A DNA stretch of 64,000 bases from Bacteroidales bacterium (GTDB taxonomy: Bacteria > Bacteroidota > Bacteroidia > Bacteroidales > ML635J-15). How positions within the stretch are numbered: the first letter of the stretch is position 1; each line of letters starts with the position of its first letter. A program made the position numbers and the translations under genes. Below are positions 9,410 through 47,935 of the stretch, piece after piece. Location of the stretch: positions 11,299 through 75,298 of the forward strand of contig QKHS01000095.1 of NCBI GenBank assembly GCA_003249955.1. The letters are read 5' to 3'. The notes beneath the pieces were generated by a model that did not search any database, was not told where the DNA came from, and saw nothing but the letters and a program-made list of their open reading frames with translations.

Positions 9410-10606
9410 ATGAAATTTAAAATATCATTATCATCTGCCAATTTAAAAGCAATTTATTTCTGCGCTATATTAATATTAATGGTATCTGTCAACTCCTGCA
9501 ATAATAATAAAAGTAATATTACAGAAATTTCAGGCAAAATTGAAAACGCATCCGGTCGCACGGTTTATCTGGAAGAATTATCTCCTGGTAAGACTCAAAC
9601 TGTTGCCACTGCTACGATTAAAGACGACGGGACTTTTAAAATCCGGCTTGACAGTATCTCTGACAGTTTCCACAGAATGAAGATTGACGACAACAATGTT
9701 ATTTATCTTAGAATTATTGACGGAGATAAGATTGAAATATCGGCAAAATATCCGGGAATTGTCAGAAATTATGAAATACAAGGCTCTGAAGACTGTAAAC
9801 TCTTAAAAGAAATGAATTTAAGACTTATTAAAAGTTCCGACATTCTTAACGAACTCAAAAATAAAGTGAATGAGTCTGCACTTATACCGGATTACAACAC
9901 CGATTCTCTATGGGAAGTAACTAATGAAACTGCACGTGAACTTTATAAATCTGACAAAGAATTTCTTACAGATTTCATCAAAAAAAACAATAAATCAGCC
10001 GTAATTTACATGGCTCTTTATCAATATATCGGGCCCTCTCCCATTCTGATGATAGAAAACGAACCTGAAATTTTCGATTTTGTTCTTACTGAATTAAAGA
10101 AGTATCATCCTGAGCTTGAACAAACAGCTTTACTTGAATCTGATATTTCCAAAAACAAATTAAAAGAAACACAGAAAAACCGGGATTATGTTTCTCTTTC
10201 TCCCGGGGTTGATGCTCCGGACTTCGTCTTACCGGATGTAAACAGTAAAAAAACATCTTTATCTGCTTTTAAGGGCAATAATGTGATAATCTGCTTCTGG
10301 TCATCATGGAGCAAAAAATCTGTAGAATCAGTGTCCGAACTCATTAATTACGAAAAAATACCCAGGCTTAAAATAATTCTCGTTTCACTTGATACTCAAC
10401 CGGAAAATTGGGAATCCGCTATAAAATCCAACAAGCTGGAAAACATGATTAATCTTTGTGATTTTAAAACATGGGAAGGTTCTGTTGTGAAAATTTACGG
10501 AATAAAAACCTTACCTTCATTTGTTTTGCTGGACTCCGAAGGCAAAATAGAATTATTGACGGATGATTTTGACAAATTAAATGCCGGCTTACAGGAAATT
10601 AAATGA
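9410..10606 (+). CDS. TlpA/AhpC-like thioredoxin-fold protein in which the CxxC motif is replaced by SxxS
   Basis: Signal or lipoprotein-like N-terminus (VSVNSC). The C-terminal thioredoxin-like region has APDFVLPD...VIICFWSSWSKKS at the position where family members carry FWA(S/T)WCxxC. Confidence 0.65.
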   Translation: MKFKISLSSANLKAIYFCAILILMVSVNSCNNNKSNITEISGKIENASGRTVYLEELSPGKTQTVATATIKDDGTFKIRLDSISDSFHRMKIDDNNVIYLRIIDGDKIEISAKYPGIVRNYEIQGSEDCKLLKEMNLRLIKSSDILNELKNKVNESALIPDYNTDSLWEVTNETARELYKSDKEFLTDFIKKNNKSAVIYMALYQYIGPSPILMIENEPEIFDFVLTELKKYHPELEQTALLESDISKNKLKETQKNRDYVSLSPGVDAPDFVLPDVNSKKTSLSAFKGNNVIICFWSSWSKKSVESVSELINYEKIPRLKIILVSLDTQPENWESAIKSNKLENMINLCDFKTWEGSVVKIYGIKTLPSFVLLDSEGKIELLTDDFDKLNAGLQEIK

Positions 10607-13536
10607 ACAAAGCATTGAAACCGATATTTCTTACGGCAGTTCTTATTTTCATTTTGAATTTAGTTGCAAAAACACAGCCGGATTTTCAACAGGAAGTAAA
10701 CCACACAATAGAAGTAAAATTAGATGTTAACACAAAAGCATTAACCGGACAAATTGAAACCGAATACATTAATAATTCCCCCAATAGTCTCGACTATATT
10801 TATTATCATTTATGGCCAAATGCATACAAAAACAACGAAACCGAATTTGCAAAACAACAATTGGCCTACGGTAAAACCGATTTTTATTTTGCCTCTGACG
10901 AACAAAAAGGATATATTGACAGTCTTAATTTTACAGTAAACGGAATCCCTGCCGAAATAAAAAATTCTCCTGAAGGTATTGATGTGATTCTGCTTATTTT
11001 ACCTGAAACCTTTTTACCGGGTGACACAATAAAAATTAAAACTCCGTTTTATGTAAAACTTCCCGAAGTTTTCAGCAGGATGGGTTATGATGAAAACACC
11101 TTCTGCATTACGCAATGGTACCCCAAACCGGCTGTTTATGACAAAAACGGCTGGCATCCGATGAATTATCTTGACATGGGAGAATTTTACAGCGAATTCG
11201 GCAGTTTCGATGTACAGATTACCCTACCCGACGACTATATTGTTGCAGCAACCGGCAATCTTAAGTCTAAAAAAGAACTTCAGCGAATGGAAGATTATGC
11301 AGAAATTTGCAGAAAATCAAAATACCCTGATAATCTCCCGCCGTACGGAGATGCAAAAAAAGAAAAAACCATAAGGTATGTTGAAAAAAACGTTCATGAC
11401 TTTGCATGGTTTACTTCAAAGGATTTTGCAATCGGAAGAGAAAATGTAAAGCTTGAGGGAAACGACAAAACCGTTTTTTGCTGGACTTTTTACAATAAAA
11501 AACACTCCGGCTTATGGAAAGATGCTATTAATTATGTAAAACAATCTGTCAGTTTTTTCTCTTCCGAAATCGGTGATTATCCATATGCCAATTGTACCGC
11601 GGTTGATGGCCCTCTAAATGCAGGCGGAGGAATGGAATACCCGACGATTACAGTTGTGTCGGCATCCTCGGCATCTTCATTGGAGAATGTAATTATGCAT
11701 GAAACAGGGCACAACTGGTTTTACGGGATGCTGGCCAGTAACGAAAGAGCAGACCCGTGGATTGACGAAGGATTTACATCATTTTACGAAAGTAAATATA
11801 ATGACAGATATCATCCGGGAACCGGGTTGCTAGAACAACTTACGTACATAAAAGGAACAAACTCAACATTACAGGAAATTCCCGGCAGGTATATCAGAGA
11901 ATTAAGCTGGTTATATCTTGTAAAAGAGAATCAGGCTCAGTCTTCGGCATTAAGATCAGAAGAAATGTCTGCGGGTAACTATGTAATAATGGCTTACAAC
12001 AAGCCTGTTTCTGTTTTATACGCGGTAGAGAAATATCTCGGCGAAGACACGTTCAGATCTATAATGAAAGATTTTTTCCAAACCTATAAATTCAGGCATA
12101 TTTATTCGCAGACATTTGCTGAGTTTTTTAAAAGTAAAACAGATAATTCAGTAACAGATAAATATTTCAATGAATTATTAATTGACAATAAAATTCCTGA
12201 TTACAAAATTGCCGGACGGCGTGGCGACAGCATTTTAATAAAAAACAATCGTGGAGCCGCCATTCCTCTTTTCCTTTACATAGGAGACTCCCTTGTAATT
12301 GATGATGGCTTTACCGGCAGGAAGGAATTTCTGTTGCCTGCTAAAACAGATGTTACAATAGACAGAGACTTTTACTCTCCTGATTATAACAGAAATAACA
12401 ATTACTATCGTCCGGGCTTTTTAACACAAAACAGCCCTGTAAAAATCAAAATCGGGAATCTCATCGATAATCCTGAAATAAGAGAGTTTCCGCTTATCCC
12501 GGTAATAGCATTTAATACCTCGGATGGCTGGATGCCGGGGATAATGTTTTACTCCACCCCTTTCCCAAAAAAGAAATTTGAGTATCAGATTGTCCCGATG
12601 TATGGGACAAGATCCGGAGACATTGCGGGCCTGACAAATATGAGCTTTTACATTCATCCCCCAAAAAGTGCGGTAAGAGAATATGAATTATTTGCAAAAG
12701 CGGCTGTTTTCGGGACAGACAGTACTTATTCAAGAATAAAAATTGCTTACGGCGTAAAAATGAAACTCAGGACAAACCCCGTGGAAAGACAGGAATCAAC
12801 AATAACCTTGCGACAAGTTACTGCAACTAATGCTTATTCCGGGAAATTAATGAATTTTCAGTGTGTAGAATCATCATATGCAGACTTTCGCAAGATAAAC
12901 CCGTGGTCATTTAAAATCAATGCTGAAGCAGGTAAAGGATTTGTAAAAGCCTGGGCCGAAATAAAACAGACTATTACATATTCGGAAAAGTTAAAAGGAC
13001 TCACAATAAGATTGTTTGCCGGTAAGTTTTTGTACAACGCACCCGTTTACTACGGCAATTACAATTTCAGATTATCCGGTAATCTTGGCTCTCAGGATTA
13101 CCTGTATGATAATCTTTTTGCCGGCAGATACGAAAACATAGGGAAACATCCTGAATTGTTCTGGAGTCACCAGTTTTTGAGAAATGACGGAGGTTTTACT
13201 CTCTGGACTCCTCATGGACAAAGTGATAACTGGCTGGCAGCAATCAATTTTGATTCTTCCACCCCTTTGCCGTTTCTGGATGCATACATTAATCTGGGTG
13301 CCTGTCCTTCCGTTAATGGAAGCACTTTTGCCTATTATTATTACGAAGCAGGCCTTAAAATTAAAATATGGGATGATTTTTTATGTGTTTACTTCCCGAT
13401 AAAAGGCTCTGAAACAATATGGGAAACAAGTAATAATTTTTACACCGACAATTACTTTCAGAAAATAAGATTTACACTATCTTTGGACAAAATTAATTTA
13501 CTGAATTACAGAGAAAAACCATATTTATTGTTTTGA
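10603..13536 (+). CDS. M1-family (gluzincin) zinc metallopeptidase, 977 aa
   Basis: HETGHNWFYG (HExxH) is followed 18 residues later by WIDEGFTSFYE (the third zinc ligand, Glu). A signal peptide is present. The ATGA start overlaps the stop of the preceding gene. Confidence 0.8.
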   Translation: MNKALKPIFLTAVLIFILNLVAKTQPDFQQEVNHTIEVKLDVNTKALTGQIETEYINNSPNSLDYIYYHLWPNAYKNNETEFAKQQLAYGKTDFYFASDEQKGYIDSLNFTVNGIPAEIKNSPEGIDVILLILPETFLPGDTIKIKTPFYVKLPEVFSRMGYDENTFCITQWYPKPAVYDKNGWHPMNYLDMGEFYSEFGSFDVQITLPDDYIVAATGNLKSKKELQRMEDYAEICRKSKYPDNLPPYGDAKKEKTIRYVEKNVHDFAWFTSKDFAIGRENVKLEGNDKTVFCWTFYNKKHSGLWKDAINYVKQSVSFFSSEIGDYPYANCTAVDGPLNAGGGMEYPTITVVSASSASSLENVIMHETGHNWFYGMLASNERADPWIDEGFTSFYESKYNDRYHPGTGLLEQLTYIKGTNSTLQEIPGRYIRELSWLYLVKENQAQSSALRSEEMSAGNYVIMAYNKPVSVLYAVEKYLGEDTFRSIMKDFFQTYKFRHIYSQTFAEFFKSKTDNSVTDKYFNELLIDNKIPDYKIAGRRGDSILIKNNRGAAIPLFLYIGDSLVIDDGFTGRKEFLLPAKTDVTIDRDFYSPDYNRNNNYYRPGFLTQNSPVKIKIGNLIDNPEIREFPLIPVIAFNTSDGWMPGIMFYSTPFPKKKFEYQIVPMYGTRSGDIAGLTNMSFYIHPPKSAVREYELFAKAAVFGTDSTYSRIKIAYGVKMKLRTNPVERQESTITLRQVTATNAYSGKLMNFQCVESSYADFRKINPWSFKINAEAGKGFVKAWAEIKQTITYSEKLKGLTIRLFAGKFLYNAPVYYGNYNFRLSGNLGSQDYLYDNLFAGRYENIGKHPELFWSHQFLRNDGGFTLWTPHGQSDNWLAAINFDSSTPLPFLDAYINLGACPSVNGSTFAYYYYEAGLKIKIWDDFLCVYFPIKGSETIWETSNNFYTDNYFQKIRFTLSLDKINLLNYREKPYLLF

Positions 13537-14282
13537 CAACTAGAACCAAAATATATTTCGTATCGGATGTACATCTGGGGATAAATAGTGAATTTACTTC
13601 GGAATATCGCGAACTTCTGCTGATAAAATGGCTTGATGAAATTAAAACAGATGCGACAGAAATTGTTTTGGCCGGAGATATTTTTGATTTCTGGTTCGAG
13701 TACAAACATGTTGCTCCGAGAGGTTTTAACCGTATAATTTCAAAGCTGAGAGAAATTTCCGACAGCGGAATAAAAATTACATACTTTACCGGAAATCATG
13801 ATATGTGGATATTCGGCTATCTGCCGGAGGCAATTGGTGCTGAACTTATTCGCGGAATACAGATAAGGGAAATAAACGGAAAGAAATTATATATAGGCCA
13901 TGGTGACGGACTTGGGCCTTACGATAAAAGTTATAATTTCCTAAAAAAGATTTTCTCATCAAAATTTTTCCAGTTTTTGTTTAAGCTTGTTCATCCCGAA
14001 ATTTCTTTCAGGATTGCCCTTAAATGGTCATCTTCAAGCCGTAAAAAACACAAATACCCTGCAAAAACAGACTTTAACGACGAATGGCTGGTAATGTTTG
14101 CAAAAACGGTATTGGAAAAAGAACATATAGACTTTTTTGTCTTCGGGCACAGACACATTCCTTTTCAGGCACAAATCGGAGATAATACGGTTTTTACAAA
14201 CCTCGGCGACTGGCTTTTTAACTTCAGTTATGCCGTTTTTGACGGAGAAAAGATGGAGTTGAAGAGAATGTTGCACGAATAA
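13533..14282 (+). CDS. lpxH: UDP-2,3-diacylglucosamine diphosphatase (calcineurin-like phosphoesterase)
   Basis: Metallophosphoesterase motifs are present: FVSDVHLG, AGDIFDFW, GNHD, GHGD and GHRH. The size (249 aa) fits LpxH. The TTG start overlaps the M1 peptidase stop. Confidence 0.75.
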   Translation: MTTRTKIYFVSDVHLGINSEFTSEYRELLLIKWLDEIKTDATEIVLAGDIFDFWFEYKHVAPRGFNRIISKLREISDSGIKITYFTGNHDMWIFGYLPEAIGAELIRGIQIREINGKKLYIGHGDGLGPYDKSYNFLKKIFSSKFFQFLFKLVHPEISFRIALKWSSSSRKKHKYPAKTDFNDEWLVMFAKTVLEKEHIDFFVFGHRHIPFQAQIGDNTVFTNLGDWLFNFSYAVFDGEKMELKRMLHE

Positions 14283-14393
14283 GCTGTTCAAATTCTGTAT
14301 TACATCATAACCTCGCCGTTTTTCATAAATTATATTTACTATAGCATACGGGCTTTTTTTCTGTCAATCTTCTAATGTCTAATGTCTTTTTTT

Positions 14394-14401
14394 TATCTTT
14401 G
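14394..14401 (+). promoter_or_regulatory. Candidate -7 box TATCTTTG upstream of lptB
   Basis: Exact TAnnTTTG match, 9 nt upstream of the ATG at 14410 (18 nt upstream of the alternative ATG at 14419). Confidence 0.4.
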
Positions 14402-14409
14402 CACAAAAA

Positions 14410-15144
14410 ATGCACGGAATGAAACTGCACACTTCAGGGTTAGTAAAAAAATATGGCAGCAGAACTGTTGTAAAAGGAGTAAGCGTTGAAGTAAATCAGG
14501 GAGAAATTGTTGGATTGCTTGGACCAAACGGAGCAGGTAAAACTACAACATTTTATATGATTGTCGGATTGATAAAACCCAACGAAGGACATATTTTCCT
14601 TGATGAAACCGAGATAACCAAGGAGCCGATTTATATGCGTGCACGAAAGGGCATAGGGTACCTTGCCCAGGAAGAATCAATTTTTCAGAAAATGTCGGTT
14701 CAGGATAACATAAAGGCCATACTTGAGATGACCAAACTGACAAAAAGTGAACAACTTCGCAAAACATCACAATTACTTGAAGAGTTCGGACTTTCACATA
14801 TTCGTAAGAGCAAAGGTTTTCAGTTATCAGGCGGAGAAAGAAGAAGAACCGAAATTGCACGTGCACTGGCGATAGATCCGTATTTTATTTTACTCGACGA
14901 ACCATTTGCTGGTGTTGACCCCATTGCCGTAGAAGACATTCAGAAAATAGTCCGACATCTTAAAGAAAGAAATATCGGGGTATTAATCACAGACCACAAT
15001 GTTCATGAAACTCTTACAATAACTGACCGTGCTTATCTTCTTTTCGAAGGCAATATTCTTAAAAGCGGGACAGCAGAAGAATTATCAGACGACGAACAGG
15101 TTAGAAAACTTTACCTCGGCGAAAACTTTGAACTAAGGAAATAA
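14410..15144 (+). CDS. lptB: LPS export ABC transporter ATP-binding protein
   Basis: Walker [10 protein letters not shown], signature LSGGERRR and Walker [12 protein letters not shown]. The size (about 240 aa) and C-terminal extension are typical of LptB. Confidence 0.85.
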
Positions 15145-15196
15145 TCATATAATTCTTAAACATAAAAATATCCTGTCTCTTCATTCATACTTTTTC

Positions 15197-15204
15197 TAAT
15201 TTTG
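15197..15204 (+). promoter_or_regulatory. Candidate -7 box TAATTTTG upstream of the SulP transporter gene
   Basis: Exact TAnnTTTG match, 26 nt upstream of the ATG at 15230. Confidence 0.4.
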
Positions 15205-15229
15205 CACCCGTTTTCAATCAGATTTTACG

Positions 15230-16885
15230 ATGAAAGATATTTTTAGACCTAAATTTTTCAGCATTATAAAAGAAGGCTATACCAGGCAACAATTTACAAA
15301 AGATTTATTTGCAGGTATAATTGTCGGTATCGTAGCCCTGCCGTTGGCTATTGCATTTGCTGTTGCCTCAGGAGTATCTCCGGAGAAAGGTATTATTACA
15401 GCGGTAATTGCCGGGTTCATTATCTCATTGCTTGGTGGTAGCCGGGTCCAGATTGGCGGCCCCACAGGAGCATTTATTGTAATTGTTTTCGGAATTGTTT
15501 CGCAGTACGGAGTCGGAGGATTACTTATTTCAACAATTCTGGCCGGAATAATGCTTATTGCATTCGGATTACTACGTCTGGGTGCTTTACTTAAATATAT
15601 TCCTCATCCCCTTATAGTAGGCTTTACCAGCGGAATTGCACTTATTATTTTTTCGACACAGATAAAAGATGCTTTCGGATTGCAAACAGGTCAGGTTCCT
15701 GCCGATTTCATAGGTAAATGGGAGACTTATTTTCACTCATTTTCAAGCATCAACTATGTGGCAATAATAATAACTGTTGTGACAATACTCATAAGCTTGT
15801 TTTTCAACAAGATAACCAATAAAATACCGGGATCTTTTGTTGCAATTATTTTTGTTACTGCTGCAGTTGCAATATTTAAACTGCCTGTCACAACTATTGA
15901 AACTCTGTTTGGCGAGATTTCCGGTAAAATAACTATGGAATTTCCTGCAATCGACTGGAGCAATATAAGTTATTACTTTGCCCCGGCTCTTACAATTGCA
16001 TTATTGGGAGCAATAGAGTCGTTGCTATCGGCAGTAGTAGCGGACGGTATGATAGGTGGTAATCACCGGAGCAATACCGAACTTATTGCCCAGGGAATTG
16101 CCAATATAGTAGCTCCGTTTTTCGGAGGGATTCCGGCAACAGGTGCAATTGCAAGGACTGCAACCAATATAAAAAACGGTGGAAGGACTCCTGTCGCCGG
16201 TATGATTCATGCGGTTACACTACTGCTCATACTTTTGTTTTTTGGTAAATATGCAAAACTGATTCCTATGTCATGTCTTGCCGGGATTCTTATTCTCGTT
16301 TCATACAATATGAGCGAATGGAGATCTTTCAGGGCCATTCTGAGGGGTTCGGCATTTGATATTATCATTCTGTTAACTACTTTTATTCTCACTGTTTTAG
16401 TCGATCTTACCGTGGCAATTCAAATCGGCATAGTGCTTTCTGCAATATTATTTATGAAACGTATGGCAGACAACGGCCAGGCAATACTAAAAGAAAAAGA
16501 CTCTCAAATTATCGAGAACTATGGCTACCTGCCTAAAGAAATTGAGATTTATGAAATCAGCGGGCCTTTTTTCTTCGGGGCTGCAAAACATTACAGTGAA
16601 GTTCTTAAAGGTCATGCCTCATCGACTAAAATACTGATTATACGTATGCGTTATGTCCCTTTTATTGACTCAACGGGAATACACAACTTTAAGGAAGCCA
16701 TAACCACTCTTAAAAGCAGCGGAAAGAAAATAATACTGTCAGGGGTACAACCTGATGTAAGGAAAGAGCTGGATAAAGCCAGGGTGGCATTTCTGATTGG
16801 GAAAGCAAATATATGTGACGATTTTGATGATGCATTGGCAAAAGCGAAAGATGTTCTCAGCAAAATGGAAAGTTCTCAGCAATAA
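15230..16885 (+). CDS. SulP-family anion transporter with a C-terminal STAS domain
   Basis: The N-terminus YTRQQFTKDLFAGIIVGIVALPLAIAFAVASGV is typical of SulP. There are many transmembrane segments and a STAS-like tail (ILIIRMRYVPFIDSTG). Confidence 0.85.
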   Translation: MKDIFRPKFFSIIKEGYTRQQFTKDLFAGIIVGIVALPLAIAFAVASGVSPEKGIITAVIAGFIISLLGGSRVQIGGPTGAFIVIVFGIVSQYGVGGLLISTILAGIMLIAFGLLRLGALLKYIPHPLIVGFTSGIALIIFSTQIKDAFGLQTGQVPADFIGKWETYFHSFSSINYVAIIITVVTILISLFFNKITNKIPGSFVAIIFVTAAVAIFKLPVTTIETLFGEISGKITMEFPAIDWSNISYYFAPALTIALLGAIESLLSAVVADGMIGGNHRSNTELIAQGIANIVAPFFGGIPATGAIARTATNIKNGGRTPVAGMIHAVTLLLILLFFGKYAKLIPMSCLAGILILVSYNMSEWRSFRAILRGSAFDIIILLTTFILTVLVDLTVAIQIGIVLSAILFMKRMADNGQAILKEKDSQIIENYGYLPKEIEIYEISGPFFFGAAKHYSEVLKGHASSTKILIIRMRYVPFIDSTGIHNFKEAITTLKSSGKKIILSGVQPDVRKELDKARVAFLIGKANICDDFDDALAKAKDVLSKMESSQQ

Positions 16886-36181: not shown

Positions 36182-38068
36182 CTATTCCACCATAACTTTA
36201 GTAAATATTGAATTCTCATTACCTTGGATTTCAATAAAATATAAGCCGGGGTTTTTATCACTTAAATCAATACTCATATTATTGCTTTCTATTTTCTCTG
36301 TTTTAATAATTCGGCCAAGTTCATCACTTATAATTATTAAACTATAATTTTGCAAATTATCAGCTTCAATGTTTACATTTCCTGTTGTGGGATTTGGATA
36401 GACTGAGAATAAGCTGGTTTCATCTTCAATCCCACCAAATGATTCTATTGTGGCATCGAAATTACATGTAGTTTGTCTGCCCGAAGCATCTGCCACAGTC
36501 CACAGAATAGTTGTTGTCCCTAAATCAAGAACACTGCCATTTAAACTGTTTGAGTTGCTGAAATCATTGATTAAATATGAAACCATACAATTGTCATCAA
36601 ATGCCAATGGATCCAATTCGGTGCCTTGTACAGTGTAAGTTTGGCTATTATCATCAGCAACAACCGTAAAGTTTGAAGGACATGTAATTGTAGGGTCCTC
36701 CCCATCATCAACAAGTCCGCCATCTGTAATAATCCAACTATTGGGTGTTCCGGTTAGTATGTTATGTGCAGTTATTGCAGCGCAGGAATATTTGCTGTTC
36801 CCCCCGCAGAAAGCTACATTGGGGAATAAAGTTTGTGCTGCCCAACCAATTAATAATGCATCATAATTTGCAACCGAGAGACTATCTCCATAAAACATAT
36901 CATCCATAAATTCTATATTACTTACATCCCAGCTTCCAATATCCTGATTAAATGCAGTGGCGTATGCAAACATAAAATACATTTTTATCACACTACTCAC
37001 GTCCCAGTTTCCGATATCCTGATTGAAGGCAGTGGCATAATTAAACATACCAGACATCTGTGTTACGCTACTCACATCCCAACTCCCAATATCCTGATTA
37101 AATGTTGAGGCATAAAGAAACATACCTCTCATATCTATCGCACTACTAACATCCCAGCTTCCGATATCCTGATTAAAGGCAATGGCGTGATAAAACATAT
37201 AATTAAAATTAGTAACACTACTCACGTTCCAGTTTCCGATATCCTGATTAAATGCTGTGGCATCCTCAAACATAGAGTTCATATGAGTAACACTACCCAC
37301 ATTCCAATTGCCAATATTCTGATTAAACGCCGTGGCATCAGAAAACATTCTACTCATATAAATAACACTACTCACATCCCAGCTTCCTATATCCTGATTA
37401 AATGCTGGGGTGTACTCAAACATCCCTTGCATATCTGTTACATTACTTACATCCCAGCTTCCGATATTTTGATTAAATGCTATAGCTCCATAAAACATTG
37501 AATACATATCAACAACACTACTCACATCCCAATTGCCAATATTCTGATTAAATGCAGAGGCAAAATAAAACATACAATTCATACTGGTAACACTACTTAC
37601 ATCCCAACTTCCGATATCATGATTAAATGCAGTAGCACCAGCAAACATATGACTAAGATTTGTAACACCTGCAGGCAATACATCCGGAACTACTGTAAGA
37701 TGAATTGCATCACGACATGAATAAGATAAATCCGTTAATCCAATATTTCCAAAATCATTAATTTTTACAAGTTTACCGGCATTTGAAGAAGCAATAGCCT
37801 CATTAGAAACACCAAAATGAGTAAGAGTCCCATTTATAATTACTGTGTAAATACCATTTACAGAGTAGGTATGGTTTCTATTACCCGGGCCTGAGAATGA
37901 TTCTGAACTCTCATCCCCCCAATCAACTGTTACATCTACAGTTCCGTATAAAGGCAATGTAATGGTTGTGCCTGCCGATAAATTTGTATTAAATTCCAGG
38001 CTCATTTGTGCCTGTAAGATAAATACCGATACCAAAAGTGCCAGTGTGAGAAATAACTTTTTTGTCAT
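36182..38068 (-). CDS. BspA-like / DUF285 repeat surface protein with an HYR-like domain and a T9SS type A C-terminal sorting domain
   Basis: Signal peptide. About ten 25-aa units of consensus [25 protein letters not shown]. HYR-like [17 protein letters not shown]...[20 protein letters not shown]-terminal [13 protein letters not shown]...LYFIEIQ. Confidence 0.85.
36884..37666 (-). repeat. About ten in-frame tandem 75-bp (25-aa) DUF285-type repeats, diverged at the nucleotide level
   Basis: I counted the repeated FN(Q/H)(D/N)IG(S/N)W(D/N)V motif ten times between about aa 135 and aa 395 of the 628-aa protein. Confidence 0.85.
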
Positions 38069-41653: not shown

Positions 41654-44600
41654 ATGAAAACAATTTTTACCTGTTTACTATTTATCATTGTGGCGATAAA
41701 TGTTAATGCCTCAATAATTTATGTTAATCATGCCGCTACGGGAGCAAACAACGGAACGTCATGGGCTAATGCCTACACAGACCTGGAATATGCTGTGATA
41801 TTTGCAATGAGCGGCGACGAGATCTGGGTTGCCAAAGGGACGTATTACACCTCATCAACCAACGACAGAAGTTCATCATTTGCTCTTGGAAACGGAGTTA
41901 AATTGTACGGGAACTTTGCCGGAACGGAAACAGATATTAACCAACGTGTCGGACTTATTCCTGATGCAGCCGGAACCGACAGGGTTAATGAAACCATTTT
42001 AAACGGAGACATCGGGGTTGCAAATGACAGCACCGATAATGCCTATCACATTATGTACATAGTCGGGAATACACTTCCGGTAATTATTGACGGTGTGAAA
42101 ATCACAGGCGGTAATGCAAGTATAGATCCGGGAAAAGGTATTGGTTCCGGGATATATATTCAAAGTACAAATGATGTATTTCTTAAAAATGTAATCATTG
42201 CAAACAACACCGGAACTGCAGGTACATACGGTAAAGGCGGAGGACTTTATGTACAGACAACCACTTCTTTTATTCTGGAAAACTCTGCCGTTATCCGCAA
42301 CAGAATTATTGATGACCCGTTAGTTTCTACAAATGCTGTATATCTTGGAGGCGGAATCTATGTAAGCAGCCCGTTGACTCAAATTTCAAACTGTTTTATA
42401 GAAAATAACAAGATACAATCGGGCAGGTCTGACAGTGAAGGCGGGGGGTTATATATTGAAAACAATTTAAATCTTGACATTACAAATACCAGCATAATAA
42501 ACAATTCTGTAATTTCAACATCCGGATCGGCAAAATATCTTAAAGGCGGAGGAATAGCATGTTATGGAAATGCAACGTCTGTTTCAAATTTAAATTTAAA
42601 TAACATTTCAGATAATACTATAACAACTTCAAAAGGAGAAGCCCGCGGTGGCGGAAGTTATCTTAGTTCTGACACTTTGAAAATTTCTGATTGTTATTCA
42701 AACAGCAACAGAATCAACACTTCGTACACCGCTACAGTATATAACACATCTGGCTGCGGCATGTATGCAGAAGTGGAAAAATCCACGAACATTACCAATT
42801 CCGAATTTAATATGAACAGCATTTATGCAGGATCGGCAAGTGGTGGTGGTTTGTGTCTGATTTCATCATCTGCAGACACTGCTTCGGTTCAGGAATGTCA
42901 ATTTTCCAATAATGTTCTGCAATCTGTAGGTTTTTCCGGTAGCTACCTCTACGGTGGCGGATTATTCCTTGGGCTAAAAGTAAGATTAAATGACTGCCAG
43001 ATAAATAATAATAATGCTAATATTTCAGCAACTGCTACTTCTGCTTATGCCAGCAAAGCAAGTAACGCTTACGGCGGGGGCGTTTATTCATCAAACTTTG
43101 CTGAATTTAATAATTGCAGCATTAACTCGAATACACTGCACTCAGACATGACTTACAATGTTGACAATAATATGACTTTCCCGTCAATATCTTCCAGAGC
43201 CAGTGGAGGAGGGATATATTCCAGCTCAAAATTAATCCTCCAAAATTCAAGCATTGATAATAATGAGGCTATGAGCTCAATAGATTCATATTATTATTGG
43301 TCTTCATATTTCAAAGGATATTGCTTTGGTGGCGGAGTATGCAATGATTATACGACATCCGGTCAAAAAAGTCTTATTTCAAACTGCACAATAAACAATA
43401 ACACTTCTAATTCATACAGTAGTTATGCATACAGCGAAATGAAAGGCGGAGGAATTTATTCAAGGAATATGGATATTCTTAACTGCGAAATTTCCAATAA
43501 CGACACTTATGTTGATCTTTCTGTCGCAGGAGGGCTTAATCAGGGCGGAGGAATTTACCACGAAGGAACCGGCAAACTTTACCATAACACTATATCTGAT
43601 AATGACGCATCTGCCGGAACCGGCTATATAAGCGGAGGTTATACATCATATACTTACGGAGGAGGTCTTTACTCCAAATCAGCCGATCCGGTATCTAATT
43701 GCCTTATTCATAACAATAGTGTAACAGGACGCAACAAAGCATATGGCGGGGGAATTTATAATGAAAGCTCTTCTGTTTTTTCAAACCTCACTGTTGCAAA
43801 AAACACTTCTTACAGTTCATATACAACCCCTGATAACAAAGGGAGCGGAGTTTACACAAATAATTCATCAGCAAAGTTCCGTAACTCAATTATTTATTTT
43901 AATGATTTACTGAGTTATTACGATCAAACCACCAGCTCGGAAGTTAAAAACAGCGTTATTCAATTGTATCCTAACGGAGCCACTAACTTTAACATAGATC
44001 CCCAATTTACAGATGTTGCTGCAAATGACTTTCATGTTTCGGCATCGTCAATTGCAATTAACAGAGGCGATGACTCTTTTATTCCTTCAGATATTACCAC
44101 AGATCTTGACGGAAATCTCAGGATATCAGGCTCAAGTGTTGACATAGGCGCGTATGAACTTGATTTATGCAAGTCTTATACTACAATTTATGATGAAATT
44201 TGCTTTGGGACTCCTTATATTTTTAACGGACAAAACCTTACAGCATCAGGAATTTACAAAGACACACTTACCAATGTAGCTCTTTGTGACAGCATTATTA
44301 CATTAAATTTCACGGTCAATAATCCGGCTTATTCAACTGATGTTATTTCGGCATGCGAAACATATACATGGATTGACGGGTTAACTTACACTACAGATAA
44401 CAATACTGCTACTTTTACCTACCCGGGTGCTACAGCAGATGGCTGCGACAGCATCGTCACTTTAAACCTTACAATCAATCACGCTACAACAGGAACAGAT
44501 TTTATTACCTCTTGCGGCTCATACACATGGATTGACGAGATTACTTACACGGCCAGCAATAATACCGCTACTTTCAATATTGCTGGTGGAGCAGCAAATG

Positions 44601-47600
44601 GTTGCGACAGTCTGGTTACTCTGAACTTAACAATAAATAATTCTGCTACAGGAACAGATGTTATTACTGCATGTGATTCTTACACATGGATTGACGGAAT
44701 TACTTACACTGCAAGCAATAACACCGCTACTTTCAATATTGCAGGTGGTGCGGCTAACGGTTGCGACAGTCTGGTTACTCTTAACTTAACAATAAATAAT
44801 TCTGCTACAGGAACAGATGTTATTACTGCATGTGATTCTTACACATGGATTGACGGGATTACTTACACGGCCAGCAATAATACCGCTACTTTCAATATTG
44901 CTGGTGGAGCAGCAAATGGTTGCGACAGTCTGGTTACTCTTAACTTAACTATTAATAATTCTGCTACAGGAACTGACGTTATTACTGCATGTGATTCTTA
45001 CACATGGATTGACGGGGTTACTTACACCGCAAGTAATAATACTGCTACTTTCAATGTTGCCGGTGGGGCAGCAAATGGTTGCGACAGTCTGGTTACGCTA
45101 AATTTAACAATAAATAATTCTACTACAGGTACAGACCTTATTACTGCTTGTAATTCTTACACATGGATTGACGGTATTATTTACACGGCTAGCAATAATA
45201 CAGCTACTTTCAATATTGCCGGTGGGGCAGCAAATGGTTGCGACAGTCTGGTTACTCTGAACTTAACAATAAATAATTCTGCTACAGGAACAGATGTTAT
45301 TACCGCATGTGATTCTTACACATGGATTGACGGGATTACTTACACGGCCAGTAATAATACTGCTACTTTCAATATTGTTGGCGGAGCGGCAAATGGTTGC
45401 GACAGTCTGGTTACCCTGAACTTAACAATAAATAATTCTGCTACAGGAACAGATGTTATTACTGCATGTGATTCTTCTTACACATGGATTGACGGGGTTG
45501 CTTACACTGCAAGCAATAACACCGCTACTTTCAATATCGCTGGTGGAGCTGCAAATGGTTGCGATAGTCTGGTTACTTTGAATTTAACAATTAATCACTC
45601 AGCTACAGGTACAGACGTTATTACTGCCTGTGATTCTTACACATGGATTGACGGTATTACTTACACGGCAAGCAATAATACAGCTACTTTCAATATTGCC
45701 GGTGGGGCAGCAAATGGTTGCGACAGTCTGGTTACGCTGAATTTAACAATAAATAATTCTACTACAGGTACAGACGTTATTACTGCTTGTAATTCTTACA
45801 CATGGATTGACGGTATTATTTACACGGCTAGCAATAATACCGCTATATTCAATATTGCTGGTGGTGCGGCTAACGGTTGCGATAGCCTGGTTACACTGAA
45901 CCTAACTATTAATCACTCAGCTACAGGTACAGATGTAATTACTGCATGTGATTCCTACACATGGATTGATGGAATTACTTACACGGCAAGTAATAATACA
46001 GCTACTTTCAATATTGCAGGTGGAGCAGCTAACGGTTGTGACAGTCTGATTACTCTAAACTTAACTATTAATCACTCAGCTACAGGTACAGATGTAATTA
46101 CTGCATGTGATTCTTATACATGGATTGATGGAATTACTTACACTGCCAGCAATAACACTGCTACTTTCAATATTGTTGGTGGAGCAGCAAATGGTTGCGA
46201 CAGTCTGGTTACACTAAACTTAACTATTAATCACTCTGCTACAGGTACTGACGTTATTTCTGCTTGTGATTCTTACACATGGATTGACGGTATTACTTAC
46301 ACTTCAAGCAACAACACTGCTACTTTCAATATTGCCGGTGGAGCAGCAAATGGTTGCGACAGTCTGGTTACTCTGAACTTAACAATAAATCACTCTACTA
46401 CAGGAACCGATGTTATTTCTGCATGCGATTCTTACACATGGGTTGACGGTATCACTTACACTGCAAGCAACAACACGTCTACTTTCAATATTGTTGGTGG
46501 AGCAGCAAATGGTTGCGACAGTCTGGTTACACTAAACTTAACTATTAATCACTCTGCTACAGGTACTGACGCTATTACTGCATGCGATTCTTACACATGG
46601 ATCGACGGAATTACTTACACGGCAAGCAACAACACTGCTACTTTCAATATTGCTGGTGGTGCGGCTAACGGTTGTGACAGTCTGGTTACTCTGAACTTAA
46701 CAATAAATCACTCTGCTACAGGAACCGATGTTATTTCTGCATGTGATTCTTATACATGGATTGACGGAATTACTTACACTGCCAGCAATAACACTGCTAC
46801 TTTCAATATTGCTGGTGGAGCAGCTAACGGTTGCGATAGTCTGGTTACGCTGAATTTAACAATCAATCACTCAACAACCGGAACTGACGTAATTACAGCT
46901 TGTGATTCTTACACCTGGATTGACGGAATTACTTACACTGCAAGCAACAACACTGCTACTTTCAATATTGCCGGTGGTGCGGCTAACGGTTGCGATAGTC
47001 TGGTTACCCTAAACTTAACAATAAATAATTCTGCTACAGGAACCGATGTTATTTCTACTTGTGATTCTTACACATGGATCGACGGAATTACTTACACGGC
47101 CAACAACAACACGGCTACTTTCAATATTGCTGGTGGAGCAGCAAATGGTTGTGACAGTCTGGTTACTCTGAACTTAACAATAAATCACTCTGCTACAGGA
47201 ACCGATGTTATTTCTGCATGTGATTCTTACACATGGATTGACGGTATTACTTACACAGAAAGTAATAACACTGCTACTTTCAATATTGCAGGTGGGGCAG
47301 CTAACGGTTGTGATAGTCTGGTTACTCTTGATTTAACAATTGAAACCATAGACCTTAGCGTAACAACATCTGATAATATAATTGTTTCAAATCAGGATGG
47401 AGCTTCATATCAATGGATTGATTGCAGTACAAATCTGCCAATTGAAAATGAGACAAACCAAAGTTTTACCGCTACTGTAAACGGCGACTATGCAGTAATT
47501 GTCTCTTTGGGAACATGTAGCGACACATCTGCTTGTGAAAGCATTATTGTGGAAAATATAGAACCTGTTTCAGATATTCAGTTTAATATTTATCCGAACC

Positions 47601-47803
47601 CGAACAACGGGCAGTTTAAGCTTGATCTGAGTTCTGAAGCCACAATAGAAATTTCTGATGCCCTTGGAAGAATTATTTACTCAGAACAGCATCAATCAGG
47701 CACATCATTAATAAATCTTTACAATGAAGAAGCTTCTGTTTACTATCTAAGAGTTATTTCTAACGGGAAAATCAGTGTTCAGAAAGTTGTGGTGCACAAA
47801 TAA
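41654..47803 (+). CDS. Giant (2049 aa) T9SS cargo adhesin: a Pmp-like right-handed beta-helix, then a 53-aa two-cysteine tandem repeat array, then a type A C-terminal sorting domain
   Basis: Signal peptide. About 14 GGG(I/L/V)(Y/C/F) turns alternating with N-rich rungs (aa 1-830). 19-20 units like SATGTDVITACDSYTWIDGITYTASNNTATFNIAGGAANGCDSLVTLNLTINN. C-terminal FNIYPNPNNGQFKLDL...YYLRVISNGK. Confidence 0.9.
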   Translation: MKTIFTCLLFIIVAINVNASIIYVNHAATGANNGTSWANAYTDLEYAVIFAMSGDEIWVAKGTYYTSSTNDRSSSFALGNGVKLYGNFAGTETDINQRVGLIPDAAGTDRVNETILNGDIGVANDSTDNAYHIMYIVGNTLPVIIDGVKITGGNASIDPGKGIGSGIYIQSTNDVFLKNVIIANNTGTAGTYGKGGGLYVQTTTSFILENSAVIRNRIIDDPLVSTNAVYLGGGIYVSSPLTQISNCFIENNKIQSGRSDSEGGGLYIENNLNLDITNTSIINNSVISTSGSAKYLKGGGIACYGNATSVSNLNLNNISDNTITTSKGEARGGGSYLSSDTLKISDCYSNSNRINTSYTATVYNTSGCGMYAEVEKSTNITNSEFNMNSIYAGSASGGGLCLISSSADTASVQECQFSNNVLQSVGFSGSYLYGGGLFLGLKVRLNDCQINNNNANISATATSAYASKASNAYGGGVYSSNFAEFNNCSINSNTLHSDMTYNVDNNMTFPSISSRASGGGIYSSSKLILQNSSIDNNEAMSSIDSYYYWSSYFKGYCFGGGVCNDYTTSGQKSLISNCTINNNTSNSYSSYAYSEMKGGGIYSRNMDILNCEISNNDTYVDLSVAGGLNQGGGIYHEGTGKLYHNTISDNDASAGTGYISGGYTSYTYGGGLYSKSADPVSNCLIHNNSVTGRNKAYGGGIYNESSSVFSNLTVAKNTSYSSYTTPDNKGSGVYTNNSSAKFRNSIIYFNDLLSYYDQTTSSEVKNSVIQLYPNGATNFNIDPQFTDVAANDFHVSASSIAINRGDDSFIPSDITTDLDGNLRISGSSVDIGAYELDLCKSYTTIYDEICFGTPYIFNGQNLTASGIYKDTLTNVALCDSIITLNFTVNNPAYSTDVISACETYTWIDGLTYTTDNNTATFTYPGATADGCDSIVTLNLTINHATTGTDFITSCGSYTWIDEITYTASNNTATFNIAGGAANGCDSLVTLNLTINNSATGTDVITACDSYTWIDGITYTASNNTATFNIAGGAANGCDSLVTLNLTINNSATGTDVITACDSYTWIDGITYTASNNTATFNIAGGAANGCDSLVTLNLTINNSATGTDVITACDSYTWIDGVTYTASNNTATFNVAGGAANGCDSLVTLNLTINNSTTGTDLITACNSYTWIDGIIYTASNNTATFNIAGGAANGCDSLVTLNLTINNSATGTDVITACDSYTWIDGITYTASNNTATFNIVGGAANGCDSLVTLNLTINNSATGTDVITACDSSYTWIDGVAYTASNNTATFNIAGGAANGCDSLVTLNLTINHSATGTDVITACDSYTWIDGITYTASNNTATFNIAGGAANGCDSLVTLNLTINNSTTGTDVITACNSYTWIDGIIYTASNNTAIFNIAGGAANGCDSLVTLNLTINHSATGTDVITACDSYTWIDGITYTASNNTATFNIAGGAANGCDSLITLNLTINHSATGTDVITACDSYTWIDGITYTASNNTATFNIVGGAANGCDSLVTLNLTINHSATGTDVISACDSYTWIDGITYTSSNNTATFNIAGGAANGCDSLVTLNLTINHSTTGTDVISACDSYTWVDGITYTASNNTSTFNIVGGAANGCDSLVTLNLTINHSATGTDAITACDSYTWIDGITYTASNNTATFNIAGGAANGCDSLVTLNLTINHSATGTDVISACDSYTWIDGITYTASNNTATFNIAGGAANGCDSLVTLNLTINHSTTGTDVITACDSYTWIDGITYTASNNTATFNIAGGAANGCDSLVTLNLTINNSATGTDVISTCDSYTWIDGITYTANNNTATFNIAGGAANGCDSLVTLNLTINHSATGTDVISACDSYTWIDGITYTESNNTATFNIAGGAANGCDSLVTLDLTIETIDLSVTTSDNIIVSNQDGASYQWIDCSTNLPIENETNQSFTATVNGDYAVIVSLGTCSDTSACESIIVENIEPVSDIQFNIYPNPNNGQFKLDLSSEATIEISDALGRIIYSEQHQSGTSLINLYNEEASVYYLRVISNGKISVQKVVVHK
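44324..47347 (+). repeat. Nineteen contiguous in-frame 159-bp tandem repeats (one unit is 162 bp), preceded by one degenerate unit at about 44164-44323
   Basis: Unit boundaries were derived from the reading frame (unit n starts at 44324+159(n-2) up to unit 9). I counted units from the recurring TLNLTIN motif. Confidence 0.9.
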
Positions 47804-47827
47804 ATAAAACAATTTTTATTTTATACA

Positions 47828-47857
47828 ATCCTCCGGTTTATGCCGGGGGATTTTTTA
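47828..47857 (+). terminator. Intrinsic terminator after the giant adhesin gene
   Basis: 9-bp stem atcctccgg / ccgggggat (one G-U pair) with loop tttatg, followed by tttttt. Confidence 0.75.
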
Positions 47858-47935
47858 TTTCTAACAGTATTTTCTGAAACAGGCAGGGCATTTACAACTT
47901 CCCGGCATTCATCTTTAGTTAACTTTTCTTTTACA

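Follow-up and report, generated by a model that had tools for sequence, protein, structure and literature searches.

A tandem array of 19 diverged coding units in a Bacteroidales gene, probably the stalk of a T9SS surface protein

How do the copies of a tandem coding repeat keep almost the same peptide when their silent sites have moved far apart? The question was raised by a locus in a 64,000-nucleotide stretch of Bacteroidales DNA (the window), in which a sequence-only reading had described a 3-kb array of 19 tandem coding repeats at positions 44324 to 47347. Tandem Repeats Finder reported an array at 44433 to 47340, with a period of 159, 18.3 copies, 87% matches, and 0% indels, and cutting the translation of the ORF at the motif L[ND][LF]T[IV], which set the unit borders, yielded 19 in-frame units over the interval described. 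All units had been given as 159 bp long, which holds for 18 of them; the remaining one, unit 8, has 162 bp. The two units that had been quoted (44642 to 44800 and 44801 to 44959) do encode the same 53-aa peptide and differ at exactly 11 nucleotides, all in third codon positions and synonymous, but they are the third and fourth of the 19, and the numbers 4 and 5 assigned to them fit only if a degenerate preceding copy (unit 0) is counted. We consider it probable that the array is old, that ordinary domain-level purifying selection acts on its units while unequal exchange or gene conversion slowly reshuffles them, and that it encodes the stalk of a T9SS surface protein. The features of the locus are collected in Table 1.

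Table 1. Features of the array-bearing gene, in window coordinates
Feature	Position	Strand	Description
Whole gene	41654..47803	+	2,049-aa predicted T9SS-secreted surface protein; sole long ORF over the region
Sec-type signal peptide	41654..41713	+	MKTIFTCLLFIIVAINVNAS; hydrophobic N terminus by inspection of the translation, conserved in orthologues
Head, ~820-830 aa	41714..44164	+	~15 GGG[ILV][YFC] motifs at a spacing of 30-40 aa
Choice-of-anchor Q domain	44027..44161 (aa 792-836)	+	End of the head; NCBIfam NF041518, 31.6 bits (cut-off, 25)
Unit 0	44165..44323	+	Degenerate founder copy with three Cys (CKSYTTIYDEICFGTPYIFNGQNLTASGIYKDTLTNVALCDSIITLNFTVNN); conserved in all orthologues
Unit 1	44324..44482	+	Divergent edge unit with positional orthologue in relatives; same unit in P0002
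Units 2-19	44483..47347	+	Homogeneous 53-aa units; mean identity ~93% (protein) and ~87% (DNA)
Unit 8	45437..45598	+	162 bp; TCT (Ser) codon duplicated, extra Ser codon at 45473-45478
Unit 17	46871..47029	+	Variant more like units from other genomes than like those around it
Pre-CTD domain, ~80 aa	47348..47587	+	Conserved Cys (…YQWIDCSTNLPIENETNQSFTATVNGDYAVIVSLGTCSDTSAC…); kept in P0001-P0005
T9SS type A C-terminal sorting domain (CTD)	47588..47794	+	TIGR04183 and PF18962
Terminator-like hairpin	47827..47862	+	11-bp stem followed by a T-run, 24 nt past the stop codon; consensus match only

The predicted protein appears to consist, in this order, of a signal peptide, a beta-helix-like head, one degenerate and 19 regular modules, a pre-CTD domain, and a type A CTD, and orthologues P0001 to P0005 had the same architecture. 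The other reading frames across the array contained no ORF of at least 80 aa. Judging by the periodicity of its GGG[ILV]Y motifs, the head looks like a PMP-type parallel beta-helix; precomputed matches to PF13229 (Beta_helix) and PF02415 (Chlam_PMP) were present in homologues, while the head of the window protein itself had no Pfam match at E ≤ 1 and no sequence relative in the PDB. The pre-CTD domain gave no family match in the Pfam and NCBIfam searches. TIGR04183 matched aa 1979 to 2047 (E = 7e-11; 41.9 bits against a cut-off of 23), and PF18962 matched the extreme C terminus (E = 6e-9; 36.5 bits against a cut-off of 27); in the PDB, this sorting domain had weak matches to a lipase C-terminal region (7pzj) and an endonuclease I chain (8glk). 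With a type A sorting domain and an N-terminal signal peptide, the protein is predicted to be a T9SS type A cargo. According to published work, type A CTDs are cleaved off after secretion, and the new C terminus is joined to the anionic LPS of the outer membrane. With the C terminus anchored in this way, the array would separate the surface of the cell from the N-terminal head and would serve as a spacer that holds the head away from it. Architecture and models suggest a rod shape for the array, whose most likely role is that of the stalk in a protein anchored to the surface of this uncultured Bacteroidales bacterium.

The repeated unit had not been assigned to a named family, and our HMM and structure searches gave it neither a named family nor a fold. 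Against Pfam-A 2025 and NCBIfam r20, it showed no genuine match above a curated cut-off; bpX5 and DUF1390 did pass the cut-off in the full-length protein, as sums of weak partial matches with no significant stretch, and apart from these and the Ig_7 score described below the hits were scattered and below threshold. A profile of the unit reached a best E value of 0.25 against PDB sequences, and Foldseek searches of the PDB gave a best E value of 0.34 with one unit and of 3.7e-3 (TM, 0.24; generic Ig/cadherin rods) with three, which is not significant. AlphaFold modelled each unit as an all-beta structure with three long strands and a short hairpin (mean pLDDT of 85.3 for one unit and 84.7 for three). 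The same profile found 31,588 protein cluster representatives, with up to ~80 copies per protein, and each of the 8 top matches whose complete C terminus was tested ended in a T9SS sorting domain, which was of type A in 4 and of type B in the other 4. By these searches, the module appears to be an unnamed but very widespread domain. Each unit has two Cys residues, which had been thought likely to form a disulfide; both were invariant among 66 diverse family members, and C11, C41, D42, and S43 were invariant in sets of 32 and 66 diverse sequences. The invariant Cys pair fits a disulfide, and the bond is probable.

Purifying selection on each unit, which had been proposed to be strong, was measured by full Nei-Gojobori pairwise comparison. 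Units 3 to 18 differed on average by 16.2 synonymous and 3.7 nonsynonymous changes, corresponding to a dS of 0.65, a dN of 0.032, and a dN/dS of 0.049 (0.062 for units 2 to 19); dN within the window array was 0.032 to 0.036. Among units 3 to 19, the minimum numbers of segregating changes were 56 synonymous and 22 nonsynonymous (38.6:120.4 sites expected; binomial P = 1e-18). Nonsynonymous changes were thus not as frequent as synonymous ones, and strong selection was confirmed, but the description of the differences as almost only synonymous was overstated, as about one-fifth of the pairwise differences were nonsynonymous and the 17 inner units included 15 with distinct protein sequences. The pattern was the same in four other arrays, with dS and dN values of 0.77 and 0.042 in the closest relative (L007), 0.32 and 0.028 in P0001, 0.45 and 0.052 in P0003, and 0.88 and 0.069 in P0004. 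Between lineages, the silent sites of the module were saturated (pS, 0.73 to 0.9) and dN ranged from 0.13 to 0.76; for the window against P0001, dN/dS was ~0.06, the same as within arrays. The purifying selection therein appears to be nothing special to the array, equalling the long-term constraint on the same domain between lineages. The units are old copies (dS, ~0.65), each a folded domain under long-term purifying selection (dN/dS, ~0.05), and because of this age and constraint the silent sites have drifted far while the peptides stayed ~93% identical. The within-array dS exceeded that of the flanks against the closest relative (0.41 to 0.59), which bears out the view that this is not a very recent amplification.

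Comparison with relatives bears on how the array may have turned over. Each lineage had its own unit type, with 2, 3, 9, 9, and 13 units in the more distant orthologues, which are different lineages and not strains of one species, and 19 in both the window and L007, which was independently assembled. The occurrence of exactly 19 units in both is not predicted by a free turnover process. Two units of the window array differed on average by 20.4 nt, two of the L007 array by 22.7 nt, and one from each array by 27.4 nt; dS was 1.19 between the arrays, which is approximately the within-array dS (~0.7) plus the flank dS (~0.5). For units 3 to 19, positional pairs (26.8 nt) were no closer than nonpositional pairs (27.5 nt), whereas edge unit 1, 29 nt from unit 1 of L007 and at least 47 nt from all other units, is clearly orthologous. 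Unit 1 was also strongly diverged from every other unit of the window (46 to 59 nt). Unit 17 was 12 to 13 nt from units 14 and 8 of L007, compared with 16 to 29 nt from other window units, and was the window unit nearest to unit 3 of P0002 (24 nt). Between the two 19-unit arrays, 44 polymorphic sites were shared and no difference was fixed; this lack of fixed differences is a hint rather than proof, because recurrent mutation at two-fold sites can yield shared polymorphism. Flank dS between the window and L007 was uneven, with values of 0.41, 0.48, and 0.59 alongside 1.5 for one segment of the head and 1.13 for unit 1, so only a loose timescale can be set for turnover after the split. Synteny is lacking between the L007 gene and that of the window, and therefore transfer or paralogy, rather than speciation, may relate the two genes.

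Shuffling of a few cassettes by gene conversion, as proposed from the sequence, was supported by four-gamete failures, PHI tests, and half-unit mosaics. The four-gamete criterion was failed by 69 to 72% of the informative site pairs. The PHI test gave P values of 0.002 to 0.044 for the window array and of ≤0.0025 for L007, P0003, and P0004 at test windows of 3 and 5 informative sites, with significance lost for P0003 at 10 informative sites; P0001 was not significant, in contrast to the other four of the five arrays. Units 6 and 10 differed at 1 position in nt 1 to 80 and at 16 positions in nt 81 to 159. Distances that are smaller within than between arrays, interior units without positional orthology next to an edge unit that has kept it, and the mosaic and PHI results point to concerted evolution. 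The mechanism would be occasional unequal exchange or short-tract gene conversion among units, which would reshuffle variants, keep the array one family, and remove positional orthology from the inner units while leaving the edge unit alone.

Other accounts of the array must be weighed against this one. An assembly artefact is an unlikely explanation for the array, and we give very little credence to the idea that its copy number, order, or unit variants came from misassembly or from merged strain variants of a metagenome. The window is apparently metagenome derived, no long-read run turned up for it, and Logan unitigs break within the array, so the order of units is not readable from them, but unitigs from two public short-read metagenome runs contained unit-specific pieces at 100% identity and at a depth of 24 to 45, near that of the single-copy flank (22.7). 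The longest exact repeated substring within 44001 to 47800 is 93 nt and k-mers of at least 99 nt are never repeated, which makes assembly unambiguous at k ≥ 99; the reading frame is unbroken for 6.1 kb, and L007, in a separate assembly that was probably made from long reads, likewise has a 19-unit array. If the array is authentic, it could have arisen in one ancient burst of 19 units that then evolved independently under purifying selection, with the mosaics as homoplasy among the few silent states allowed. The pairwise distances are compatible with this, being nearly star-like (9 to 31 differences) with little dependence on lag, and 53 of the 69 variable sites are biallelic, with many two-fold sites among the variable ones, at which recurrent mutation would be easy. 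However, the PHI permutation controls for homoplasy without positional structure and still detected a signal in most arrays, the half-unit mosaics are sharp, and the tracts that units share run to 93, 84, and 83 nt at the longest, across unit borders and beyond the 67 nt that a column-shuffle null sets as its 95% limit. Independent divergence also fits poorly with units that are closer within than between genomes and with the absence from L007 of positional orthologues for the inner units, given that dS is higher within the array than in the flanks and that unit 1 does have such an orthologue. We judge this account unlikely.

Under natural codon scrambling, silent divergence would itself be selected because it suppresses RecA-dependent deletion and slippage; the stalk, with its length of 19 units and its uniform peptide both functionally required, would thereby be kept stable. 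The longest exact tract common to two units has a median of only 23 to 26 nt (26 nt in the window array), which is close to the shortest length that still supports efficient homologous recombination in E. coli. This reading would also accommodate the 19 units shared by two genes with a flank dS of ~0.5, and a protein identity between adjacent domains far above the usual value of <50% (PMC8201768) without high DNA identity. However, neighbouring units were not more unlike than distant ones, and the Mantel trend of distance with lag was the opposite of that expected (r = +0.14, P = 0.10 in the window; r = +0.19, P = 0.04 in L007). Exact shared tracts were longer, not shorter, than in the shuffled null, dN/dS within the array matched the long-term value, and copy number varied widely among the other orthologues. 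In the family, arrays occurred at every identity level, including 100% identical units: among 137 multi-unit proteins, mean unit identity was continuous from 1.00 to ~0.38 (median, 0.56), as would be expected of arrays that differ in age. The pattern can be explained without any selection for silent-site diversity as such, and we consider scrambling quite improbable. An old array under ordinary constraint, with slow exchange among its units, is the reading we prefer.

Such an array resembles periscope proteins, which are surface proteins with a variable-length stalk, such as SasG, Rib, and Sgo_0707 (Whelan et al. 2021, PMC8201768). In both, near-identical folded tandem domains separate a distal head from the anchoring end (in the window protein, by its predicted architecture), copy number varies between lineages (2 to 19 here), and identity between adjacent domains is far above 50%, a value that multidomain proteins usually do not reach (PMC8201768). 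The same study invokes high DNA identity between repeats, with protein identity as a by-product. The window array lacked the high inter-repeat DNA identity that enables intragenic recombination in periscope proteins: at the DNA level its units are 87% identical, with a dS of 0.65 and no exact tract above 93 nt, under a protein identity of ~93%. It also differs in having as many units as its closest relative, in its Gram-negative host, in its T9SS A-type sorting domain instead of sortase/LPXTG, and in its unnamed unit.

Fibrillar adhesins and giant T9SS repeat proteins of Bacteroidota, e.g., of the SprB type, have been reviewed (PMC10202324 and PMC5445135) and surveyed (PMC8286594 and PMC9210967). 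As in these proteins, the window protein has a signal peptide, a head, repeated stalk domains, and a C-terminal T9SS sorting domain; its module occurs in thousands of proteins, with the tested top matches ending in type A or B CTDs. In contrast to them, its head has no known adhesive function, and the module was unmatched by the Pfam and NCBIfam models for named stalk domains (SprB repeat, Ig-like, PKD, HYR, Big, and Cadherin). Positions 42 to 84 of the Ig_7 profile (PF19081, CHU_C associated) weakly matched the most divergent members (P0100-type units), and in one distant family member the summed score was 30.1 bits against a cut-off of 27.3, with no single significant stretch. The window units, unit 0, and most family members were unmatched by Ig_7 at E ≤ 0.01, and the module has 50 to 53 aa compared with 84 profile positions.

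With regard to repeat evolution more generally, the array behaves like repeats under concerted or birth-and-death evolution in that units are more alike within a genome, edges escape homogenisation, mosaics occur, and unit types are lineage specific. Unlike in typical concerted evolution, homogenisation has been slow enough that silent sites within the array are about half saturated. Persi, Wolf, and Koonin (2016, PMC5120217) compared horizontal and vertical evolution of protein repeats and reportedly found positive and strongly relaxed purifying selection to be the drivers; the between-unit (horizontal) dN/dS of the window array is, by contrast, low (0.05).

Some minor features of the locus deserve mention. 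Every window unit carries C-D-S-[LI], and in ~5,000 family units the C-D-S-x positions held D in 90%, S in 89%, and I/V/T/L in ~89%. The general O-glycosylation sequon of exported Bacteroidota proteins is (D)(S/T)(A/I/L/V/M/T) (PMC8550257). The sequon is present in the module, but Thr almost never replaces Ser across the family units, and this near-absence suggests a structural role for the residue. The neighbouring genes scanned at 36 to 54 kb included no T9SS component (PorK/L/M/N, SprA/Sov, or PorU/V), and a second CTD-bearing cargo gene lies nearby, at 36182 to 38068.

Tandem Repeats Finder reported a single array between 40 and 52 kb, with a period of 159 nt, 18.3 copies, 87% matches, and no indels. 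It was enclosed in one long ORF, and the other frames and strands across it contained no ORF of 80 or more amino acids. Unit borders were set at the L[ND][LF]T[IV] motif that recurs in the translation, which gave 19 units behind a degenerate copy (unit 0). Of these, 18 were 53 amino acids long, and the sole length change was the doubled TCT (Ser) codon of unit 8, giving CDSSYTW, which looks like a 3-nt slippage. The sequence-only reading of this DNA had picked out two adjacent units that encode one identical peptide and differ by 11 nucleotides, each of them synonymous and at a third codon position. Both observations held, and only their numbering as units 4 and 5 was a trivial slip, as they stand third and fourth in the array. 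The remainder of the 64-kb window held no further copies of the module, and public assemblies held no record of the exact protein. The last residue was Asn in units 2 to 7, 9, and 17 and His in units 8, 10 to 16, and 18 (44483-47188), a spatial clustering that points to putative blocks of local duplication or conversion.

Coordinates of the array gene, its units, and neighboring features in the window
Feature	Position	Strand	Description
Second T9SS cargo gene	36182-38068	-	628 aa; four DUF285 stretches, HYR domain, Por_Secre_tail CTD
Array ORF	41654-47803	+	2,049 aa
Unit 0	44165-44323	+	Degenerate copy ahead of the 19 units
Units 1 to 19	44324-47347	+	Exact extent by motif cutting
Array by Tandem Repeats Finder	44433-47340		Period 159
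Third unit	44642-44800	+	Same peptide as fourth unit
C-D-S-L of third unit	44762-44773	+	After second Cys
Fourth unit	44801-44959	+	Same peptide as third unit
Unit 8	45437-45598	+	54 aa
Doubled TCT codon	45473-45478	+	In unit 8
Unit 17	46871-47029	+
Terminator-like hairpin	47827-47862		11-bp stem and T-run, between stop codon and convergent DUF418 gene

The assembly of the array appeared credible. Within 44001-47800, exact repeats reached at most 93 nt and no 99-mer was repeated, so de Bruijn assembly at high k is unambiguous. The example therefore informs whether such arrays assemble from short reads, and for this one they suffice, as its exact repeats stay within 93 nt. Among sampled words of 43800-47900, array included, 78% were present in two public metagenome runs, one of them labeled hydrothermal vent. 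Unitigs of both runs matched unit-specific stretches at 100% identity, with depths of 24 to 45 at these stretches and 22.7 in the single-copy flank. Short unitigs cannot give the unit order, and no long-read runs holding the array were found. An independent MAG assembly carried a related gene with the same layout and 19 units.

Selection on the units was estimated by the Nei-Gojobori method over all unit pairs. Pairs among units 3 to 18 had on average 16.2 synonymous and 3.7 nonsynonymous differences (dS 0.65, dN 0.032, dN/dS 0.049), and the dN/dS for units 2 to 19 was 0.062. Third, first, and second codon positions contributed 42, 18, and 9 variable columns, respectively. Minimum segregating changes, which we also counted in units 3 to 19 to guard against pseudo-replication, were 56 synonymous and 22 nonsynonymous (p = 1e-18 versus site proportions). 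The surplus of silent changes is genuine and very large. However, the earlier description of units differing almost only at synonymous sites was overstated in its "almost only", as 15 of the 17 inner units had distinct peptides. Between lineages, silent sites were saturated (pS 0.73 to 0.9) and dN ranged from 0.13 to 0.76; where still estimable, in the window compared with its orthologue P0001, dN/dS was about 0.06. Thus, the constraint within the window array is the ordinary long-term constraint on the unit domain. Nothing points to additional selection for peptide uniformity, and the peptides are alike because the common ancestor of the units is fairly recent relative to the rate of amino acid change.

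Orthologues with a matching N-terminal head and matching tail each had their own unit type and their own copy number. Within-array divergence of relatives was computed from the DNA of their contigs, and the P0001, P0003, P0004, and L007 arrays had dN/dS values of 0.05 to 0.12. In two more diverged arrays (P0006 and P0007), silent sites were saturated and dN/dS was 0.12 to 0.19. Across 137 multi-unit proteins of the family, mean unit identity was continuous from 1.00 to about 0.38 (median, 0.56), with 8 proteins at 0.85 or higher, and the window array lies in the homogeneous tail of this continuum. One family member, P0123 (2,175 amino acids), stood at the young end with about 40 units of 100% protein identity, the result of a very recent expansion or else of an artifact of assembly.

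Unit arrays of the orthologues (P0001 to P0005) and of the closest relative (contig L007)
Array	Units	Unit length (aa)	dS	dN
P0001	9	51	0.32	0.028
P0002	3	53
P0003	12-13	50	0.45	0.052
P0004	9	51	0.88	0.069
P0005	2
L007	19, after its unit 0		0.77	0.042

The closest relative of the array gene, with 86% amino acid identity in the head, was encoded on the Bacteroidales MAG contig L007. The gene had three frameshifts (around 4170-4190, 4690-4710, and 5620-5637), one of them an extra C in a CCC run within a unit, and these are probably long-read homopolymer errors and not pseudogenization. Unit 1 differed between the window and L007 by 29 nt, and by at least 47 nt from every other unit; from these distances it is a clear positional orthologue. 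In units 3 to 19, positional pairs differed by a mean of 26.8 nt and nonpositional pairs by 27.5 nt, and aligning the two arrays at offsets of -4 to +4 brought no improvement. Mean differences were 20.4 nt within the window array, 22.7 nt within the L007 array, and 27.4 nt between them. The flanks of the gene had dS values of 0.41, 0.48, and 0.59, with 1.5 in one head segment and 1.13 in unit 1, an unevenness that makes the clock soft. The dS was 0.65 within the window array, 0.77 within that of L007, and 1.19 between them; the last is roughly the sum of within-array and flank dS, as expected of units that act as lineages in a pool with slow turnover. No fixed differences separated the two arrays, which shared 44 polymorphic sites (36 of them third-position) and had 39 private ones; recurrent mutation can be a source of shared polymorphism at two-fold sites. 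Unit 17 was 12 to 13 nt from L007 units, 16 to 29 nt from its own neighbors, and 24 nt from unit 3 of P0002, and its start, TCAACAACC, was the majority haplotype in L007. The second unit of L007 (5434-5586) was of the 51-amino-acid type (…THTLTNVHNC…) typical of P0001 and P0004 where the window has a 53-amino-acid unit, so the two 19-unit arrays are not strictly collinear.

Signs of exchange between units were present within the arrays. In the window, 69 to 72% of informative site pairs were incompatible, and a PHI-type permutation test gave p values of 0.002 to 0.044 depending on window size. The same test gave p < 0.0005 to 0.002 for L007, p ≤ 0.0005 for P0004, and, for P0003, 0.0005 to 0.0025 at 3 and 5 informative sites and 0.25 at 10; it was not significant for the small P0001 array. 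Individual units were mosaics: unit 6 differed from unit 10 at 1 position in nt 1 to 80 and at 16 in nt 81 to 159, the corresponding counts were 7 and 2 for units 6 and 9, and 14 and 2 for units 12 and 14. Breakpoints seemed to concentrate around nt 56 to 85 of the unit. The longest shared exact tracts were 93, 84, and 83 nt, beyond the 95% limit of 67 nt under a column-shuffle null, and they spanned unit borders. Taken together with the L007 comparison, the permutation tests, mosaics, and long tracts are classic marks of concerted or birth-and-death evolution, with a homogenized interior and escape at the edge. Homogenization of the array is slow relative to silent mutation, and ordinary purifying selection combined with slow array turnover would generate the DNA pattern. 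The finding was real, and the sequence-only reading, which had invoked strong purifying selection, shuffling by gene conversion, or both, was essentially right.

The L007 flanks (1-2600 and 8744-15274) had no tblastx match anywhere in the 64-kb window. Synteny was absent, which rules out treating L007 as a simple species-level orthologue. P0002, at 76% identity, was syntenic, with a downstream DUF418 gene at 79% amino acid identity (dS 1.18) and dS values of 1.0 to 2.5 in the flanking parts of the gene itself. Since L007 is not syntenic whereas the more distant P0002 is, the genes of the window and L007 may owe their relation to transfer or paralogy, and the differing neighborhood of L007 suggests that the gene could have been transferred or rearranged.

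The unit itself, which the sequence-only reading could not place in a named family, matched none in Pfam-A (2025 copy) or NCBIfam r20, whether we searched with the whole protein, two- or three-unit pieces, or 32 diverse relatives. Scattered weak matches to bpX5, DUF1390, TRP_N, LRR, and MHC_I were noise arising from the repeated, low-complexity sequence; bpX5 and DUF1390 did exceed their cutoffs in the full-length protein, but as sums of many weak partial matches with no significant stretch. The C-terminal half of the Pfam Ig_7 profile weakly matched the most divergent family members alone and none of the window units; this sole hint of a named relative may serve as a weak lead and does not amount to membership. 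A profile of 66 diverse units had no match among PDB sequences. AlphaFold models built from the unit alignments were confident (mean pLDDT of 84.7 for three units and 85.3 for one), and the modeled unit consisted of three strands, TDVITAC, ATFNI, and SLVTLNLTIN, the first and third of them long, and a short hairpin (SYTW…TYT). Foldseek found nothing significant in the PDB; the best E values were 3.7e-3 for three units (TM 0.24), where all matches were generic Ig or cadherin rods, and 0.34 for one. Matches of the three-unit model to titin, cadherin, and MpIBP reflected the beads-on-a-string shape alone, and those to the Aureispira T9SS protein GhpA, low ranked at E > 3, were disregarded.

Of 1.84 billion cluster representatives, the 66-unit profile matched 31,588 at E ≤ 1e-3 and 22,157 at E ≤ 1e-10, some with up to about 80 unit copies per protein. 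We checked eight complete C termini among the top matches, and every one was a T9SS sorting domain, of type A in four and of type B in the other four. Both Cys residues and the Asp-Ser after the second Cys were invariant in the alignments. Every window unit had C-D-S-[LI] there, which fits the Bacteroidota O-glycosylation sequon (D)(S/T)(A/I/L/V/M/T) (PMC8550257). In about 5,000 family units, these positions were D in 90%, S in 89%, and I, V, T, or L in about 89%, with Thr almost never replacing Ser. The motif could carry one glycan per unit or be purely structural. This 50- to 53-amino-acid, two-Cys, all-beta module has no name or structure in Pfam-A, NCBIfam, PDB sequences, or PDB folds; found in giant Bacteroidota T9SS cargo in about 31,600 clusters, it clearly qualifies as a candidate curated domain family and as a target for structure determination.

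The C terminus of the array protein matched the T9SS type A sorting domain (TIGR04183, 41.9 bits with a cutoff of 23; PF18962 also matched), and by this domain the gene is predicted to encode type A cargo. A typical hydrophobic signal peptide was read from the translation at the N terminus. About 15 GGG[ILV][YFC] motifs spaced 30 to 40 amino acids apart followed in residues ~21 to 837, and the head ended in a choice-of-anchor Q domain (NF041518, above cutoff). Homologues of the head matched Pfam Beta_helix and Chlam_PMP, neither of which matched the window protein itself, and the beta-helix head is a probable one. A conserved Cys-containing region of ~80 amino acids, with no family match, separated the array from the CTD. 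Type A CTDs are cleaved and the protein is then linked to anionic LPS (PMC10202324, PMC5445135, and PMC4804311), which would place the array as a stalk between the cell surface and the distal head.

The array gene, with its unnamed domain, belongs to a well-known class, the repeat-stalk surface proteins, and its architecture would work like that of a fibrillar adhesin or a Periscope-type stalk protein. Strain-level length variation defines the Periscope class, as does high DNA identity between repeats, to which Whelan et al. attribute both this variation and protein identity (PMC8201768). In contrast, the window array lacks this high DNA identity. It is a natural example of peptides that remained about 93% identical as their DNA drifted to a dS of about 0.65, a decoupling backed by four related arrays and one array-to-array comparison. 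Protein-level repeat identity is thereby separated from DNA-level identity, which gives context for the Periscope-protein idea and for metagenomic annotation of repeat proteins.

Free turnover does not predict exactly 19 units in both the window and L007 arrays, and the equal count may reflect coincidence or stabilizing selection on stalk length. We weighed the possibility that silent divergence is itself selected, protecting the array from (RecA-mediated) recombinational deletion, which we regard as improbable. In its favor are the median longest exact tract common to two units, only 23 to 26 nt, and the equal copy number of the two genes, but neighboring units were not more different than distant ones, and the trend was opposite (Mantel r = +0.14, p = 0.10 in the window; r = +0.19, p = 0.04 in L007). 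Shared tracts were also longer than chance, not shorter, dN/dS agreed with the long-term value, and arrays of the family span every identity level, including 100%. We hold it equally doubtful that the array is a codon-scrambled stalk of fixed length in which selection keeps both the unit number, equal in these two diverged genes, and the near-identity of the peptides, with silent divergence retained as a brake on RecA-mediated deletion; possible reasons for such uniformity are regular lateral packing or evenly spaced O-glycans, one for each unit, displayed at the invariant C-D-S-[IVTL]. If true, the array would be, in function, the reverse of a Periscope protein, and high identity of adjacent domains could be a product of selection on the protein, not necessarily a side effect of DNA identity. 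Purifying selection and slow turnover are known processes that account for the DNA pattern, and the array reveals no new mechanism.

A sigma-70 promoter scan gave fewer matches than shuffled sequence, and this promoter type is inappropriate for Bacteroidota in any case. L007 carried a (GATTACA)x12 heptamer array (2272-2355) some 250 nt ahead of the related gene's start, with no counterpart in the window; it could be a slippage-prone promoter element. The neighbors of the array gene were unrelated to it (SnoaL-like, AHSA1-like, glyoxalase-like, DUF418, TonB-C, and HlyD-type genes), and the only related neighbor was the second T9SS cargo gene, about 3.6 kb upstream.
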